Shown: piece by piece, positions 1 to 6,359 of the stretch
How positions within the stretch are numbered: the stretch's first letter is position 1
How the letters are laid out: each line of letters starts with the position of its first letter
Virus record (IMG/VR): IMGVR_UViG_2711768014_000005
DNA: 6,359 nt
DNA from: a virus
Lineage: Duplodnaviria > Heunggongvirae > Uroviricota > Caudoviricetes
Direction: 5' to 3' (one strand)
Notes under the pieces: model-generated
Told to the model about the DNA's origin: nothing
Database searches by the model: none
The model's input: only the letters and a program-made list of their open reading frames with translations
Made by a program: the position numbers and the translations under genes

Positions 1-105
1 CTCGTCTGGGGAATATCTCCCCGGCAGCCTTCAGGGAAAAATATCATCAGATGGCTGCTTAAAAAAAGAACAAATGGTAGTGTCCGCTATTGCCAGTACA
101 CCTCA
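1..105. repeat. Left arm of a perfect 105-bp terminal inverted repeat (partner 6255..6359)
   Basis: Reverse complement of 6255..6359 is identical to 1..105 base for base; identity breaks at position 106 (g here, t in the partner). Lies inside an open frame. Confidence 0.95.
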
Positions 106-139
106 GGATAGCGGTCATGTGATGCCGGTTTCCCGGTAA
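1..139 (+). CDS. 3' end of an unidentified gene (partial; start lies outside the window)
   Basis: Frame is open from the window edge, with stop TAA at 137..139. Translation ...SSGEYLPGSLQGKISSDGCLKKEQMVVSAIASTPQDSGHVMPVSR*. First 105 nt are the inverted repeat, so the same residues also begin the minus-strand gene at the right end. Confidence 0.4.
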   Translation, partial: SSGEYLPGSLQGKISSDGCLKKEQMVVSAIASTPQDSGHVMPVSR

Positions 140-509
140 CTCAGCACCGGTATCTGAGTCAACGTTTTCTCTACTGGGTCATTTCCGATACGCCCTGCCT
201 GCTGACAGGCTTTCATCACATCTGAAAATATAGCACCCTGACTGATACTGTAGTACCTAAGGTTCCAGAAACTGTGATGTATCCGGCACAGAAAAGCCCC
301 TCCGGAGAGGGCTGGAGAGTGGCGCTATGTGCCATTGCATGATGCCGGGTGCCTCCCGGTGAATTCAGTACCAGCACCTGAATCCGCGATTATCCCATAT
401 ACCTACTCGCTGATTGCCCCTCCGCACAGGGGGATTCACCATGCCAGTTTCTTTTAACAAACTCCCCGCAAAACAGACAACTGTCAACCGTCTGAATTGT
501 GAGACATTT

Positions 510-535
510 AAAAAAAAGGCCCGCAAAAGCGAGCC
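510..535 (-). terminator. Putative rho-independent terminator downstream of the tRNA cluster
   Basis: Minus strand reads GGCTCGC-TTTT-GCGGGCC followed by a run of 8 T (6 of 7 stem pairs), starting 15 nt after the 3' end of the last tRNA. Confidence 0.5.
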
Positions 536-549
536 AGGGAAAATAAGTG

Positions 550-626
550 TGGCGCGTTGTACTGGATTCGAACCAGTGACCGATTGCTTAGAAGGCAATT
601 GCTCTGTCCGGCTGAGCTAACAACGC
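550..626 (-). tRNA. argO: tRNA-Arg (anticodon TCT)
   Basis: Minus-strand sequence GCGTTGTTAGCTCAGCCGGACAGAGCAATTGCCTTCTAAGCAATCGGTCACTGGTTCGAATCCAGTACAACGCGCCA folds as a cloverleaf: acceptor GCGTTGT/ACAACGC, T-arm ACTGG-TTCGAAT-CCAGT, anticodon loop CTTCTAA, encoded CCA. Gene name assigned from position in the ileZ-argN-argO trio I recall from Stx-type lambdoid phages. Confidence 0.85.
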
Positions 627-639
627 ATGATGCAGATAA

Positions 640-716
640 TGGACCGCCATCGGGGACTTGAACCCCGCGCAGCCAGCTTCGAAGGCTGGCGCTCTTTCCT
701 GATGAGCTAATGGCGG
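640..716 (-). tRNA. argN: tRNA-Arg (anticodon TCG)
   Basis: Minus-strand sequence CCGCCATTAGCTCATCAGGAAAGAGCGCCAGCCTTCGAAGCTGGCTGCGCGGGGTTCAAGTCCCCGATGGCGGTCCA: acceptor CCGCCAT/ATGGCGG, anticodon stem CCAGC/GCTGG with loop CTTCGAA, T-arm CGGGG-TTCAAGT-CCCCG, encoded CCA. D-loop is slightly atypical. Gene name assigned by order. Confidence 0.78.
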
Positions 717-723
717 TATGTGA

Positions 724-799
724 TGGTGGCCCTTGCTGGATTTGAACCAGCGACCTGGCGATTATGAGTCGCTCGCTCTCACCACTGAGCTAAAGGGCC
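724..799 (-). tRNA. ileZ: tRNA-Ile2 (anticodon CAT, lysidine-type; formally also compatible with Met)
   Basis: Minus-strand sequence GGCCCTTTAGCTCAGTGGTGAGAGCGAGCGACTCATAATCGCCAGGTCGCTGGTTCAAATCCAGCAAGGGCCACCA: acceptor GGCCCTT/AAGGGCC, anticodon loop CTCATAA, encoded CCA. Closely resembles E. coli tRNA-Ile2 (ileX) as recalled. Confidence 0.85.
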
Positions 800-839
800 G
801 GGAGCCGCATAATAACGACGCGTAATTAATTCTTCAATA

Positions 840-1898
840 TCATCCGTTCTGGCTGACTAAATCCTGTACTTCCCGAACCGTCTGCTCAAAACGTTCAGTC
901 TCCAGCTCAACGCCAATTGCACGACGCCCGAGCGCCAGTGCCGCTTTCACTGTCGAACCCAACCCCATGAAAAAATCTGCAATCAGGTCACCCGGACGAC
1001 TGCTAGCGCTGATTATCTGCTGCAGCATTTCTGCCGGTTTTTCGCACGGATGTTTCCCGGGATAGAACTGCACCGGTTTATGCGTCCACACATCGGTATA
1101 CGGCACCTGCACCGTCACGCCAAAATACCGCCGCAGATGTTTATATTCACTCAGCAGCTCCGCATACTGCCGGTTCAGTGAGGTATACGTATCCACCAGC
1201 TGGTGGTGGAGCTTTTCCAGTTCACCACGCCGATGCTTCTCTTCTGCCACCCGGGCAAACAGCGCCTGTAATTTCAGATAATCGCTTTCATTCGGCAACT
1301 GCCACTGACCGGCACTGAACCAGTGCGACACCATGTTTTTCTTTCCTGTGGCATCTGCAATCTGTTTTGCCGTTATCCCCAGGGCAGCTCGCGCATCACG
1401 AAAGTAAGAAATCAGCGGGGCCATCACATGCTGTTTCAGTGCACTGCCCTTCGCCGCATACCCGGCATCTTTCGGACGATACGGCCCCTGATAATGTTCC
1501 GCGAACAGAATGCGCTCTGTGGCGGGGAAATACGCCCGCAGGCTTTCCTTGTTGCATCCGTTCCAGCGTCCGGACGGCTTCGCCCAGATAATATGGTTCA
1601 GCACACTGAAGCGTTCACGCATCATGATTTCGATATCAGATGCCAGGCGATGACCACAGAACAGGTAAAGACTTCCGGCAGGTTTCAGCACCCGCCAGAA
1701 CTGCGCCAGACACTGGTCCAGCCACTTCAGGTAATCATCGTCGCCCTTCCACTGGTTATCCCAGCCCTCAGGCTTCACTTTAAAGTACGGCGGGTCCGTG
1801 ACTATCAGGTCAACAGAATTTTCGGGTAACGACCGGATAAATTCCAGGCAGTCGGCGTTGATTAACTCACAACTGGATATTTTTACAGTATTAAGCAT
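840..1898 (-). CDS. DNA methyltransferase, beta-class (N6-adenine or N4-cytosine), orphan
   Basis: 352-aa ORF. Catalytic motif IV DPPY near the N-terminus (LIVTDPPYF) and AdoMet-binding motif I near the C-terminus (DFFMGLGST), the beta-class order. No restriction endonuclease partner in the window. Confidence 0.9.
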   Translation of the reverse strand: MLNTVKISSCELINADCLEFIRSLPENSVDLIVTDPPYFKVKPEGWDNQWKGDDDYLKWLDQCLAQFWRVLKPAGSLYLFCGHRLASDIEIMMRERFSVLNHIIWAKPSGRWNGCNKESLRAYFPATERILFAEHYQGPYRPKDAGYAAKGSALKQHVMAPLISYFRDARAALGITAKQIADATGKKNMVSHWFSAGQWQLPNESDYLKLQALFARVAEEKHRRGELEKLHHQLVDTYTSLNRQYAELLSEYKHLRRYFGVTVQVPYTDVWTHKPVQFYPGKHPCEKPAEMLQQIISASSRPGDLIADFFMGLGSTVKAALALGRRAIGVELETERFEQTVREVQDLVSQNG

Positions 1899-2029
1899 GG
1901 ATCATTAAGCCTGTCTCTGATAGGCTCATTCTGCTTTTGCGCAAAGCAGTGGGCCTGAGGTTTGCTTGTGAACCCAACGCATGAGCAGATGGCTGGTGGG
2001 TGCCCCTAACACCCACCAGCCGCCCATTT

Positions 2030-2062
2030 ACCACAAATAAAAAAGCCTTCACTGCGGAAGGC
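2030..2062 (-). terminator. Putative rho-independent terminator at the 3' end of the 65-aa ORF
   Basis: Minus strand reads GCCTTC-CGCAGT-GAAGGC followed by TTTTTTATTTG; the hairpin overlaps the last codons and stop of ORF 2049..2246. Confidence 0.45.
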
Positions 2063-2246
2063 GTCTGTAACAACCGAACTGATAGTCTGCCAGACCCGCC
2101 ATAACCAGCTGGGTCAGTATTAACTGGCAGCGTTCGCGTGAAAGGTAAGTATTCTGCGCTATCTCCCCGACTGTCGCCGGTTCGGTAACGCTTAATTCAT
2201 TAAACACCACTCTGGCGGTTTCTGTCATATCCTGCTGTTTTAGCAT
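2049..2246 (-). CDS. Small hypothetical protein with helix-turn-helix-like segment (65 aa)
   Basis: ATG at 2246 preceded by GGAAAAGGAAAAGAC (AAGGA-type ribosome-binding site). Segment TVGEIAQNTYLSRERCQLILTQL looks like an HTH recognition helix. Sits between tR' and the methyltransferase. Confidence 0.55.
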   Translation of the reverse strand: MLKQQDMTETARVVFNELSVTEPATVGEIAQNTYLSRERCQLILTQLVMAGLADYQFGCYRRLPQ

Positions 2247-2364
2247 GTCTTTTCCTTTTCCGGTTAACGTGACACACCAATAACTCTTGTCGAAAAAGCC
2301 AGCAAGCTGAAAGACAGGTATTCACCGCCACCAGCGCGTTTACTGTACTGACGCGATTTCAGTC

Positions 2365-2390
2365 ATAAAAAACCCGCTCGGCGGCGGGTT
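2365..2390 (-). terminator. tR'-like rho-independent terminator downstream of pR'
   Basis: Minus strand reads AACCCGC-CGCCGA-GCGGGTT followed by TTTTATG; about 40-65 nt downstream of the predicted late promoter. Confidence 0.7.
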
Positions 2391-2430
2391 GTAGAAACTC
2401 TTCTAACGTCAGGCATAAAACGCCCATCGT

Positions 2431-2466
2431 TATAACGAATTTACCACAGATTCCGGAAAAATCAAC
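2431..2466 (-). promoter_or_regulatory. Late promoter pR' with overlapping qut-like site
   Basis: Minus strand has -35 TTGATT (2460..2465) and -10 TAAATT (2438..2443) with a 16-nt spacer, immediately after the Q stop codon. The -10 and initial transcribed sequence TAAATT...AACGATGGG closely parallel lambda pR'/qut as recalled. Confidence 0.65.
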
Positions 2467-2470
2467 CTTG

Positions 2471-3076
2471 TTACCTAGTTACCTTTTTTAACTGNNNNNN
2501 NNNNNNNNNNNNNNNNNNNNNNNNNNNNNNNNNNNNNNNNNNNNNNNNNNNNNNNNNNNNNNNNNNNNNNNNNNNNNNNNNNNNNNNNNNNNNNNNNNNN
2601 NNNNNNNNNNNNNNNNNNNNNNNNNNNNNNNNNNNNNNNNNNNNNNNNNNNNNNNNNNNNNNNNNNNNNNNNNNNNNNNNNNNNNNNNNNNNNNNNNNNN
2701 NNNNNNNNNNNNNNNNNNNNNNNNNNNNNNNNNNNNNNNNNNNNNNNNNNNNNNNNNNNNNNNNNNNNNNNNNNNNNNNNNNNNNNNNNNNNNCTGCCGG
2801 TTTTATTTCTGCCGGGAGTTTTCTTAACGCCGCCACGCGATCACACCGACTGAGTGCATATTCTGTCAGCAATTCTGTTGCCCGCTCTCTGTCATTCATA
2901 CTAATGCCCATTTTCCCAAGGAACGCAGAAACCCCCATCTCAGCCCGATTCTGTGTCATGCCCTGCGCGGCCATCACATCAGTGATACTCAGCGCATCTT
3001 TCGACGTTGAGGCCGATGCATCAGTCAGGCCGGGGGATTTTGGGGAGTAGTATTTCGGTAAATCTTCCAGTTTCAT
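2471..3076 (-). CDS. Q: Late-gene antiterminator Q (lambda Q family); middle masked by N run
   Basis: N-terminal 94 aa MKLEDLPKYYSPKSPGLTDASASTSKDALSITDVMAAQGMTQNRAEMGVSAFLGKMGISMNDRERATELL... parallels lambda Q (MRLESVAKFHSPKSPMMSDS...SGTDVMAAMGMAQSQAGFGMAAFCGK...), and the C-terminus ...KVTR* matches lambda ...AVTR*. Frame is preserved across the 299 N. ATG overlaps the rusA stop (ATGA). Confidence 0.85.
   Translation of the reverse strand: MKLEDLPKYYSPKSPGLTDASASTSKDALSITDVMAAQGMTQNRAEMGVSAFLGKMGISMNDRERATELLTEYALSRCDRVAALRKLPAEIKPAXXXXXXXXXXXXXXXXXXXXXXXXXXXXXXXXXXXXXXXXXXXXXXXXXXXXXXXXXXXXXXXXXXXXXXXXXXXXXXXXXXXXXXXXXXXXXXXXXXXXQLKKVTR
2495..2793. other. Run of 299 N (masked or unresolved sequence) inside the Q gene
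   Basis: Contiguous n characters. Length is frame-compatible with the flanking Q coding sequence (283 nt upstream + 299 N + 21 nt + stop = 201 codons). Confidence 1.
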
Positions 3077-3453
3077 TTTTTGACCTGCCCTTCAAGCATT
3101 ATGGGATAAATCTTCACCCCCAGACGTCCACCAGATACTGGCTGAGCACGAACGATATTGATTTCATCAAACTGCTCATCGTCCATTAGCAACCCCGCAT
3201 GCGTCAGCGCATCCAGCGGCGCTTTCAGAATATTGTCCAGGTCACGGCGGCGCTTATCCGGTGGTTCTGCAATAATTTTTATTGCCAACCTTCCGGACAG
3301 GCTTAATTTCAGCCGCTGCTGGCGAACAATAAGCGCCACTGCCCGGCGATAACGCTCCCCGGCTTTTGATACAAAATATGTGCTGCCACGACGACGCCAG
3401 TAAGTGTTCACCGTCGGCGGGTAAGGTAAAACAAATTCTATGCGCTCGGTCAT
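3073..3453 (-). CDS. rusA: RusA-type Holliday junction resolvase (crossover junction endodeoxyribonuclease)
   Basis: 126 aa with the RusA signature ...PPDKRRRDLDNILKAPLDALT... and N-terminal LPYPPTVNTYWRRRG matching the E. coli RusA pattern. Start ATG directly follows the stop of the upstream ORF; its stop overlaps the Q start. Confidence 0.9.
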   Translation of the reverse strand: MTERIEFVLPYPPTVNTYWRRRGSTYFVSKAGERYRRAVALIVRQQRLKLSLSGRLAIKIIAEPPDKRRRDLDNILKAPLDALTHAGLLMDDEQFDEINIVRAQPVSGGRLGVKIYPIMLEGQVKK

Positions 3454-4512
3454 TTATGCTTTCCACTTCAGAACACCCGAATTTCTCGCGTGCATTAAAA
3501 AACGAATCAGCAACAACAGCTGACTGCCGTGTTTCTCTTCAAAATCTTTTACTCCGGCATGTAGTTCGTTACGGCATTTACGGCATAACGGAATAACAAA
3601 CAAATCATCAGCCTTTGTTCCCATCCCTCCCAGTCCATGACCAATGATGTGATGCGGATCATCTGCCTGATTGCCACACGTCATGCATTTCTGCGTTTTT
3701 ACCCAGCGCGTGTATACAGGCATCTCTTCCCGTTGTGATTTCTGGCGCTGGAGATACTGAGCCGGTGACTCCGGATCAACGGCAATGCTGACCACCGTCT
3801 TTTCCTGTGGTGGGTTCTGTTGCTGGTGGACGTGAGGCAGTAACGCAATATTTTTTGTGCGCTGCTTCAGTATGCTGGTGGCTGTCTGCTCTCCCGGTAT
3901 GATGTCGCTTTCACTGTACACAGAGCGAATTTTTTCCGCACGCAACCCCAGCGAACGACGTAATACCGCTTCCGGTAGCGCGTCCGCCACCTGATTGCGG
4001 ACCGCCCACCAGGATAATTCAGCCAGAGATAATTCACGCTCCTGCGTACCGCTTATTGCGTGACCGATGACGTCAATCATCCATGCTGACAGGTTTTGAT
4101 GAGCAAGTTGCTCGAGTGATTCGGATGTCTGGTCACGCAGCTGGTTGTCGCAGTGCCAGCACAACACCATTGCGCCGGTACCATAACGGTGAATGACGGT
4201 TTCGCTGTGATGATAATCGCCGTGTGGCCACTGGCAGGATTTAATATGGCGCAACAGCCAGTCAGACAATGCACCAGCACCACCAGCAGCACGAATCACC
4301 CGTGCGTTACTGAAAAACGGCAGCAATGTTTTGTCTTCCACCAGCGGCTGGCGAGCGGCAGGAACGACCCCGGACGGCAGATTACGCATGCTTTTTGGTT
4401 CCGGCTCCACCAGTATTCTGCCGTTATGGAATGCTGACATTGATTCACGGCCTGGCTTAACGATAACCAGACCGAGTTCCGGTACCAGAACAGGTCGAAG
4501 TAATACCCGCAC
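3454..4512 (-). CDS. ydfU: YdfU/DUF968-like lambdoid prophage protein with C-terminal HNH-like Cys/His motif
   Basis: 352-aa ORF from GTG at 4512 preceded by GGAGGT; an internal ATG at 4440 (MSAFHNG...) is an alternative start. C-terminus CMTCGNQADDPHHIIGHGLGG...LCRKCRNELH. Size and position between rem/hok and Q match Qin-prophage ydfU as recalled; the family name is not verified by search. Confidence 0.7.
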   Translation of the reverse strand: MRVLLRPVLVPELGLVIVKPGRESMSAFHNGRILVEPEPKSMRNLPSGVVPAARQPLVEDKTLLPFFSNARVIRAAGGAGALSDWLLRHIKSCQWPHGDYHHSETVIHRYGTGAMVLCWHCDNQLRDQTSESLEQLAHQNLSAWMIDVIGHAISGTQERELSLAELSWWAVRNQVADALPEAVLRRSLGLRAEKIRSVYSESDIIPGEQTATSILKQRTKNIALLPHVHQQQNPPQEKTVVSIAVDPESPAQYLQRQKSQREEMPVYTRWVKTQKCMTCGNQADDPHHIIGHGLGGMGTKADDLFVIPLCRKCRNELHAGVKDFEEKHGSQLLLLIRFLMHARNSGVLKWKA

Positions 4513-4587
4513 ATTACCTCCAGATCCGTTGCTGGAATGTGCGGGACGGACGCGTTGGCCGTTCGGAGTAAGGGAGCCTGACGGAGA

Positions 4588-4869
4588 TTATCCAGTGACG
4601 GTAGTCGAGGCTAAGGGCTTTTTTAACCTCGCATCCGCGCCTGCGGTAACACTGAATGAGCCATTCGGCCTGTTCTTCAGTGCATGGGGGATGCTGGTAC
4701 CAATCAGATTTAAATGCGTGAGAGCGCCGCCCGTGCCTGCTGGCAAAGACGGCTGAATTATCAGAATTGTGTAGTCTGGAAGGCAGTGGCTGACAATAGC
4801 GCCATTCTCAACGCGCACAGTATAGAGGCCATCTTCACTAAAAATTTCACGTAATTCTTCGATTTTCAT
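4588..4869 (-). CDS. Hypothetical small protein (rem-like by position)
   Basis: ATG at 4869 preceded by GGAAGGA with an 8-nt spacer; 93 aa MKIEELREIFSEDGLYTVRVENGAIVSHC.... Lies between hok and the ydfU-like gene, where rem lies in Qin. C-terminal half is of lower complexity. Confidence 0.45.
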   Translation of the reverse strand: MKIEELREIFSEDGLYTVRVENGAIVSHCLPDYTILIIQPSLPAGTGGALTHLNLIGTSIPHALKNRPNGSFSVTAGADARLKKPLASTTVTG

Positions 4870-4989
4870 CAACAGAATCCTTCCAGATAAATAGCACTCC
4901 CCTGTTCGGGGTCCATCCCTCTTCTCCCTGCGCGCTACTTAAGTATTTTTGATTCTATTCCGGCACCATCTAAAACTTCAAACGCGTTG

Positions 4990-5020
4990 AAAATAAAAAC
5001 AAAAACCCGCCGAAGCGGGT
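4990..5020 (-). terminator. Rho-independent terminator at the 3' end of the hok transcript
   Basis: Minus strand reads ACCCGC-TTCG-GCGGGT followed by TTTTTGTTTTTATTTT, about 70 nt downstream of the hok stop. Confidence 0.55.
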
Positions 5021-5089
5021 TAAGTGTGGGTGCATTGAGGATGCCTGCCCCATCAGAGGTGGCGAGGGATTTCTCCCCCGCCTGGTCTC

Positions 5090-5245
5090 TTACTCCTCAG
5101 GTTCGTAAGCTGTGAAGACAGCGACCTCCGTCTGGCCGGTTCGAATTCGTACCTCGCAGAGGTCTTTCCTCGTTACCAGTGCCGTCACTATGACGGTTAA
5201 ACAGATGACGATCAGGGCGATTAACATCGCCTTTTGCTGCTTCAT
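5090..5245 (-). CDS. hokD: Hok/Gef-family membrane toxin (HokD/RelF-like), 51 aa
   Basis: MKQQKAMLIALIVICLTVIVTALVTRKDLCEVRIRTGQTEVAVFTAYEPEE has the Hok-family transmembrane segment and conserved C-terminal region (compare Hok ...[28 protein letters not shown]). Start ATG at 5245 preceded by AAGGAG at 8 nt. The 70-aa ORF in the track is an in-frame upstream extension. Confidence 0.85.
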   Translation of the reverse strand: MKQQKAMLIALIVICLTVIVTALVTRKDLCEVRIRTGQTEVAVFTAYEPEE

Positions 5246-5456
5246 AGCCTGCTTCTCCTTGCCTTTCGGCACGTAAGAGGCTAACCTAGATTTGCCGTTC
5301 ATAGATTGAGCCTCAGATTAATGTTAAGCGTCTTGCCGGACGCGTAATGTTAACTGGGGCTTTTCTCTATCTGCCTTTTGGTGTTCATGCCTGAGACAGA
5401 TAGCCTCAAGCACCCGCTGCAATTCTACTTAACTCTCCTTTTCCCGCAAACCGTTT

Positions 5457-5540
5457 TTATCCCCAGCGGCAAATCGAATACACCACCAGCGCCACCGCCA
5501 TCGCAATTCCTACCGTTGTTAATGCTTCAGGCCAGGTCAT
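5457..5540 (-). CDS. Possible 27-aa hydrophobic micro-ORF
   Basis: [27 protein letters not shown] has a single predicted transmembrane stretch. Its ATG overlaps the TGA stop of the 114-aa ORF (ATGA). Below the ORF-track size cutoff and may be fortuitous. Confidence 0.25.
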
Positions 5541-5881
5541 CGTAAAATATCCTCCACGCTTATCAGTCCGTTCCGCTCCAGATAACTCATCGCCTTATCC
5601 GGTAATTTGCAGTCTGGCTTCGCTTTCCTCAGTTGCCAGGTTAACTGCTTTACCAGCATGGTTAACTCATCGACCAGACGCTGATATCCCACTGGTTTGT
5701 ATTCATGCAATTTACCGGCTGGCTCTGCTGCCAGCGATACCAGTGCGATTTCCAGAACAGCAATATCCATCTTATATGTGCGGATGATGTCATGGTCGAT
5801 TGTGCCCGGTATGCACAGTCTCTGTGCTTCAATAGTCTCCTCTGCGTGAGCTATTAACTGCTCTCTGGTAAAAGTCGTCAT
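5537..5881 (-). CDS. Hypothetical protein, 114 aa (N-terminal domain paralogous to the upstream 55-aa ORF)
   Basis: [23 protein letters not shown]...[13 protein letters not shown].... ATG overlaps the stop of the 55-aa ORF (ATGA), preceded by GAAGGGG. No family recognisable by eye. Confidence 0.6.
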
Positions 5882-6045
5882 GCCGTAGCCCCTTCTTGAT
5901 ATTTTTCAAACCAGAACACAACCGGCTCTGCTTCCAGCGATGCCAGCGCAATCCGTGCCAGTTCCATTTGTTCACCACGGGTAAGCCCGTTTTCAAGCGG
6001 GTTTTTAATGAACAATTCAATACGTTCTTTGGTAATAGTGGTCAT
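5878..6045 (-). CDS. Hypothetical small protein, 55 aa (paralog of the N-terminus of the 114-aa ORF)
   Basis: Not in the ORF track (under 60 aa). ATG at 6045 preceded by AAGGAG with a 7-nt spacer; [55 protein letters not shown]. Shares the MTT start and the IAL-SL-AEP motif with the 114-aa ORF. Confidence 0.45.
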
Positions 6046-6055
6046 GTGTTACTCC

Positions 6056-6359
6056 TTAACCCGCAGTGCTTTCAACTGATGAGGGGAACAAAATCTTTTC
6101 ATCAAACCCTGCATTCATATCATGAACAGCAACACACCAATCCATCGACGAACGATTATCAAGAGCCTCCATGATTTCATCCATGCGGCGTAGGTCATAC
6201 AGGTAAATGCTTTTATCGCCAATGGTGTAAAAGCCAATTTTTTTCGGTGATGGATGAGGTGTACTGGCAATAGCGGACACTACCATTTGTTCTTTTTTTA
6301 AGCAGCCATCTGATGATATTTTTCCCTGAAGGCTGCCGGGGAGATATTCCCCAGACGAG
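6056..6359 (-). CDS. 3' end of an unidentified gene (partial; start lies beyond the right edge)
   Basis: Frame open from the window edge to TAA at 6056..6058; ...SAIASTPHPSPKKIGFYTIGDKSIYLYDLRRMDEIMEALDNRSSMDWCVAVHDMNAGFDEKILFPSSVESTAG*. Same strand as and contiguous with the downstream operon; its stop overlaps the ribosome-binding site of the 55-aa ORF. First 105 nt are the right IR arm. Confidence 0.55.
   Translation of the reverse strand, partial: SSGEYLPGSLQGKISSDGCLKKEQMVVSAIASTPHPSPKKIGFYTIGDKSIYLYDLRRMDEIMEALDNRSSMDWCVAVHDMNAGFDEKILFPSSVESTAG
6255..6359. repeat. Right arm of the perfect 105-bp terminal inverted repeat (partner 1..105)
   Basis: Exact reverse complement of 1..105; divergence begins at 6254. 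Confidence 0.95.

Follow-up and report, generated by a model that had tools for sequence, protein, structure and literature searches.

The window, a stretch of 6,359 nt from a Caudoviricetes genome (IMG/VR record IMGVR_UViG_2711768014_000005), begins and ends with one and the same sequence in opposite orientation. This raises the question of what the repeat represents and why it lies precisely at both limits of the record. The original prediction offered three readings: a segment that can be inverted by recombination, two paralogous prophage genes in inverted orientation, or a fold-back artefact of assembly. Below we describe how comparison with related genomes leads to another answer, namely that the arms are almost certainly the innermost 105 bp of two full-length, inverted copies of insertion sequence IS600, which on sequence grounds flank a piece of decaying prophage in Shigella sonnei.

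Identity of the inverted repeat

A repeat search, confirmed by direct string comparison, recovered two arms of 105 nt (positions 1-105 and 6255-6359) that are 100% complementary and lie 6149 nt apart. The presence of exact reverse-complement arms at both termini was thereby confirmed, and the description of the 6.1-kb interior as a segment bounded by inverted repeats was borne out. The abrupt stop of the identity at 106/6254 was found as described: the bases adjoining the left arm (GGATAGCGGT) and those adjoining the right arm, read in the same sense (TCCATCACCG), have no sequence in common, and the adjoining flanks show no likeness. The second-best inverted pair of the window measures 26 nt at 73% identity, and it is effectively impossible that a perfect inverted repeat of 105 nt arose by chance in 6.4 kb.

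When the 105 nt were compared by megablast with 5,426 complete E. coli genomes, 3,433 records were matched, of which 3,178 at an identity of at least 99%. The genes underneath these matches are annotated as 'IS3-like element IS600 family transposase', to which RefSeq adds 'programmed frameshift'. As a reference we used the IS600 copy of E. coli E2865 (locus L003), which measures 1264 bp, starts with TGAGGTAGCC and ends with CAGTACACCTCA. It lies within a split ninF gene, with a 3-bp duplication (CGC/CGC) on either side. Members of the IS3 family transpose by a copy-out/paste-in route that involves a DDE transposase and yields a 3-bp duplication of the target. Each arm is 100% identical to positions 1160-1264 of the reference element. 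The terminal repeats of IS600 are TGAGGTAGCCTGAGTTTAACGGACAC on the left (IRL) and, read inward, TGAGGTGTACTGGCAATAGCGGACAC on the right (IRR), so that the element has 5'-TG...CA-3' ends. The arm ends in CACCTCA at position 105, which puts the exact right terminus of IS600 at the inner edge of each arm.

The left arm (1..105, + strand; hereafter the right end of copy A) contains the final 19 codons of OrfB (3-57) with the stop codon TAA (58-60), followed by the right terminal inverted repeat, which ends in CAGTACACCTCA at position 105. The translation of 3-60, RLGNISPAAFREKYHQMAA followed by the stop, is that of the OrfB C-terminus in the reference copy. The right arm (6255..6359, - strand; the right end of copy B) holds the identical 105 bp in inverted orientation, and full 1264-bp copies are found here in L004-L013. 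The other hallmarks of IS600, which are the frameshift between OrfA and OrfB and the DDE (rve) domain, lie outside the window, in which only the last 19 codons of the transposase gene are present. The genes that flank the segment in L004 do encode HTH_Tnp_1, HTH_21 and rve domains. Judging from the near-identical genomes, the remainder of copy A would be situated to the left of the window and that of copy B to its right. A promoter scan yielded no sigma-70-like site in the arms. In short, the element is the IS600 known from Shigella and enteroinvasive E. coli (IS3 family; 1264 bp, TG...CA ends, OrfAB with a programmed frameshift, rve) and is in itself no different from it, except that the window shows no more than its last 105 bp. 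The 3-bp target duplication is present around copy A and around the reference copy in L003, but is lacking around copy B.

These results do away with the proposal that the arms derive from paralogous prophage genes, since both arms match, at 100% identity, the right end of IS600, a sequence found in about 3,200 E. coli records. They also qualify the statement that no recombinase was visible. A Pfam scan of the ten interior ORFs indeed recovered no recombinase; the arms themselves, however, are the 3' portion of a gene for a DDE transposase, cut by the ends of the window. The view that the sequence alone would not suffice to identify the repeats was correct, and as a whole the original interpretation was partly supported, although none of its three readings was correct as stated.

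Related genomes that carry the junctions

Neither of the two junctions between IS600 and the prophage was present in the 5,426 complete E. coli genomes. As a marker of the right junction we took the exact sequence of a chimeric ORF of 76 aa that spans it (see below). In the assembly collection, 795 blocks list this ORF, and contigs over 1 Mb occur in 83 of them. In 599 of the 795 blocks the longest carrying contig measures 2-10 kb, as expected if draft assemblies break at the flanking IS600 copies. We read 24 blocks from the set of 83 with contigs over 1 Mb, and 25 contigs in all; the ten loci that were compared (L004-L013) lie on chromosomes or megabase contigs that measure 4.78-5.03 Mb. Papers name two of the chromosomes with the ORF, CP022457 as Shigella sonnei 2015C-3566 and CP060117 as S. 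sonnei UKMCC1015. The window and L004 are 99.96% identical: a run of N in the window separates two stretches that have a single mismatch each.

In eight complete genomes (L004, L006-L009 and L011-L013) the segment lies between two complete 1264-bp IS600 copies that are inverted with respect to each other and have their IRR ends facing inward. Because a full IS600 flanks both sides in these near-identical genomes, the real inverted repeat measures 1264 bp. In the genomes in which the two copies are of equal length, they differ at 0-3 positions. We examined columns 126, 553 and 983 of the IS600 alignment. In most strains columns 126 and 983 are both C in copy B and both T in copy A. L004 has no difference between its copies, copy A of L012 has the copy-B base at 983 and copy B of L011 has the copy-A base at 126. 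Such strain-dependent patterns may result from gene conversion among copies or from artefacts of polishing within repeats.

Two other IMG/VR contigs (L014 and L015), compared with positions 1-514 of the window, contain the copy-A junction and are identical to the window through position 472, after which they continue in the backbone of a paralogous prophage. This backbone has no methylase gene, and its Q/RusA region is 92% identical to that of the window; the outer flank of L014 (L014 3087-4380) differs as well. The switch, near position 473, is close to the edge of the STnc100 region, of which paralogous copies exist in other prophages. It either reflects real recombination between prophages or a switch within a repeat during draft assembly. 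Target-site specificity of IS600 was considered as the cause of the junction in L014 and L015 and rejected, since neither contig departs from the window until after position 472.

Serine recombinases were encountered in the wider surroundings. L009 encodes a Gin/Pin-like serine invertase of 190 aa next to Mu-like com/mom genes (L009 3014-3586 and 7195-8086), and L004 (1011-2531), like most other loci, encodes a large serine recombinase of 506 aa beyond yciA-ompW. Both genes are separated from the IS600-bounded segment by more than 6 kb and show no link to it.

History of the two IS600 copies

In the loci that have copy A, the element is flanked by TCC on both sides in the orientation of the locus (TCC-IS600-TCC), which corresponds to GGA in the orientation of the window; the inner copy of this 3-bp target-site duplication is found at 106..108. 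The S. sonnei loci L005 and L010 lack copy A and read uninterruptedly ...GCTATCC/TTCCAGG..., with a single TCC. By this comparison of filled and empty sites, copy A is a textbook simple insertion that is polymorphic within the species.

Copy B was present in all ten S. sonnei loci and splits a phage gene of 87 aa. It has no target duplication (TTT-IS-TCC), and the first flanking base differs from that of the E. coli reference. Outside copy B we did not find the missing 5' part of the 87-aa gene, but a DUF977 gene on the opposite strand. The lack of a duplication and the foreign outer flank suggest that copy B was rearranged later, via an adjacent deletion or via recombination between IS copies. 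In L012 (8759-8768) and L017 (8619-8660) the outer flank reads AGCTGATTAG directly up to the IS, unlike in the other eight complete loci. The sequences of these variant flanks point to IS600-mediated chromosomal rearrangements at copy B.

The data indicate that the two copies arrived separately. Copy B entered the 87-aa gene, and copy A inserted later, with the phage tRNA/STnc100 region on one side and the late-gene module on the other. Their opposite orientation at a distance of 6.15 kb is the chance outcome of two separate insertions. Likely consequences are the loss of a small phage gene, a Q/tRNA block that is physically cut off from the late genes, and the creation of 1.26 kb of inverted homology that RecA could use. 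The inverted repeat has no function of its own. The GGA found beside both arms on the + strand led us to consider one intramolecular event of transposition and inversion. This was rejected on the basis of the full duplication that copy A has of its own; the occurrence of copy B without copy A in L005 and L010 argues further against it, and a coincidence of GGA is a 1-in-64 event.

Both arms had been described as lying in an open frame reading into the window. Such frames indeed run inward from an ATG at 74 and from its mirror at 6286, but they are chimeras, beginning 32 nt inside the end of IS600. On the left side a 21-codon ORF (MVVSAIASTPQDSGHVMPVSR, then a stop; 74..139, + strand) runs from the IS600 end into phage DNA and is probably meaningless. 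On the right side, the ORF of 76 aa that served as a marker (6056..6286, - strand) consists of 10 codons from the IS600 end, followed by 66 C-terminal codons (6056-6254) that are the remnant of the 87-aa phage gene interrupted by copy B, as is clear from the intact gene in E. coli (L002; starting with MATLTKKERAWLNELQDVLDRCPSPKK). The chimeric ORF has no match to a Pfam family.

Gene content of the interior

The interior (106..6254) is a degraded lambdoid prophage fragment with all genes on the - strand, running from a nin-like early region via the antiterminator gene Q to a cluster of tRNAs. The best matches among E. coli prophages cover only 105-2466 and 4991-6253/6254 of the window. Their homology begins and ends exactly at the boundaries of the arms, and the matching prophages run on beyond these points, with genes for a SASA-family esterase and a holin on one side and with the intact 87-aa gene on the other.

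From the left end inward, we identified the small RNA STnc100 (RF02076; 284..473, - strand) with an Rfam score of 123.6 bits, the gathering score being 47, and three phage tRNAs (550..799, - strand), for Arg(TCT), for Arg(TCG) and with a CAT anticodon, respectively, on basis of ARAGORN and the RefSeq annotation of the matches. The tRNA with the CAT anticodon (724-799, - strand) is called tRNA-Met by ARAGORN, while the homologous E. coli gene is listed as tRNA-Ile in RefSeq. Presumably, the cluster is of the ileZ-argN-argO type of lambdoid and Stx phages. Next comes a DNA methyltransferase of 352 aa (N6_N4_Mtase, E=7.9e-42; 840..1898, - strand) and an ORF of 65 aa (2049-2246, - strand). The Q gene (2471..3076, - strand) was recognized by the Pfam Antiterm domain in its N-terminal part and by alignment to L004 and L017; it is broken by the run of N. 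It is adjoined by genes for a RusA Holliday-junction resolvase (Pfam E=1.5e-16; 3073..3453, - strand) and for a DUF968/HNH-like protein of 352 aa (Pfam E=2.6e-62; 3454..4512, - strand).

The remainder of the interior consists of small genes. Alignment revealed the remnant of a Rem-family gene (4588-4872, - strand; an ORF of 94 aa). Relative to the S. sonnei loci L005 and L010, there is a deletion of 250 bp at 4781/4782, by which the Rem-family gene is cut after about 30 codons and fused out of frame to the next gene, giving the 94-aa ORF at 4588-4872. A toxin gene of the hokD type (5090-5302, - strand; Pfam HOK_GEF, E=3e-23) is found together with the region of the Sok antisense RNA (5240-5415, - strand; Rfam sok, 112.4 bits), and a complete hokD/sok type I toxin-antitoxin module is therewith contained in the IS600-bounded segment. 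Two small genes with no Pfam family, encoding 114 aa (5537-5881, - strand) and 55 aa (5878-6045, - strand), respectively, precede the chimeric ORF. These adjacent genes contain a direct repeat of 29 nt at 86% identity (5721-5749 versus 5924-5952) and both translations have a ...L(A/V)SL(E/A)AEP... motif, which suggests that they may be distant paralogues.

Position of the repeat at the ends of the record

Given the near-identical genomes, the window most likely represents an entire contig or scaffold of a short-read assembly, both ends of which stop, after a fixed length of overlap, inside the multi-copy and collapsed IS600. Shigella reference chromosomes contain 229-348 IS insertions, and IS600 is one of the five insertion sequences that have expanded in all Shigella (PMC7373316). 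As IS600 occurs in many copies in Shigella, short-read assemblers would not be able to cross the element, and both ends of a contig would stop at equal depth. The depth of 105 nt would most likely represent the overlap length of the assembler; we know of no named assembler to which 105 can be attributed as a default k-mer size. Breaks at multi-copy insertion sequences are known from short-read assemblies, and here both ends lie at the same depth inside the repeat, whereas other drafts differ. The independent draft contig L016 (4235 bp), for instance, is 100% identical to window positions 34-2494 and ends 72 nt into the same copy A. The fact that it ends at 72 and not at 105 nt indicates that the length of the arm depends on the assembly. 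Among 19 aligned IS600 copies there was no polymorphic position at the boundary of the arm (1159/1160). What survives of the suspicion about assembly is the exact terminal placement of the repeat, an effect of truncation at a multi-copy repeat and not of folding back.

The run of 299 N within the Q gene (2495-2793) corresponds to 515 bp in L004 and L017, which implies that it is not a one-to-one mask. Probably, the run stands for a scaffold gap whose size was estimated; a deletion of 216 bp combined with masking is a possible alternative.

Alternative explanations

Two inverted repeats of 1.26 kb are a possible substrate for RecA-dependent inversion, and this is the point in which the idea of an invertible segment survives. 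In its most tenable form, the 6.15-kb segment would flip detectably by RecA recombination between the IS600 copies, as an unprogrammed polymorphism. The length of the repeats, their spacing and the 0-3 differences between copies of equal length all favor such a process. Moreover, the IS600 copies of this locus have taken part in other rearrangements, as indicated by the missing duplication of copy B, the outer flanks vary (in L012 and L017 at copy B, in L014 at copy A) and the SNP patterns between the copies vary among strains. Nevertheless, all eight complete genomes with both copies agree in the orientation of the segment, whether judged against both outer flanks or, where one flank has changed, against the other one, and none of the 25 contigs read had the flipped arrangement. 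The outer flanks of the variants are not those that a simple flip would give, and the reciprocal hybrid SNP pattern expected from an inversion at columns 126 and 983 was not seen. Considering these data we find detectable flipping unlikely. Two readings that attach a function to the arrangement are clearly less probable still: that the block of Q, methylase, tRNA and hok/sok genes is a RecA-driven flip-flop, or that the ATG in the IS600 end drives the synthesis of an N-terminally replaced phage protein of 76 aa. If true, either would imply differences in prophage gene expression from strain to strain or from cell to cell.

A composite transposon, in which IS600, the 6.15 kb and the second IS600 would have inserted as a unit, comes to mind in view of the layout, as Tn10 and Tn5 likewise have two inverted copies of one IS around a few kb. 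The unit is not bracketed by a duplication, however, the outer flanks being TTT and TCC, and copy A has a duplication of its own as well as an empty-site allele. In addition, the interior is collinear with the prophage sequence beyond copy A, which continues with the genes for the SASA esterase and the holin, in agreement with E. coli L001, and both outer ends of the unit would be IRL. The arrangement thus differs from Tn10 and Tn5 in that it was built in place by two separate insertions and shows no sign of having moved as a unit, which makes the transposon highly improbable.

A programmed, site-specific switch of the Hin/Gin/Cin/Pin or FimBE type, with the arms as crossover sites, shares with the locus only its geometry, i.e. 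perfect inverted repeats that bound a segment, and its probability is close to nil. The arms are ends of IS600 and not short sites of a cognate invertase, the interior has no serine or tyrosine recombinase according to Pfam, the IS copies arrived separately, one arm is absent in some strains that have an intact empty site, and the orientation was the same in eight out of eight complete genomes with both copies. Equally negligible is the fold-back or chimeric assembly artefact, since, in spite of the repeat lying exactly at both record ends and the run of N, only the terminal 105 nt are palindromic and both junctions are found again in independent draft and finished assemblies, among them complete S. 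sonnei chromosomes with full IS600 copies and with outer flanks that differ from each other.

Significance

The reading as two IS600 copies around a prophage remnant connects the locus to biology that is already known, namely IS600 in S. sonnei combined with truncation during assembly. For the interpretation of short virus records it means that a perfect terminal inverted repeat, with a match that ends at the terminus of an insertion sequence, should first raise the suspicion of a truncated multi-copy IS. With respect to the organism, the locus follows the same pattern as the IS-driven decay of Shigella genomes (Hawkey et al. 2020, PMC7373316), with an IS600 inside a gene, copies that vary between strains and rearranged outer flanks. 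It is at most a strain marker or a local hotspot of rearrangement, and as such a routine case of the expansion of insertion sequences and the decay of the genome that have already been described for Shigella.
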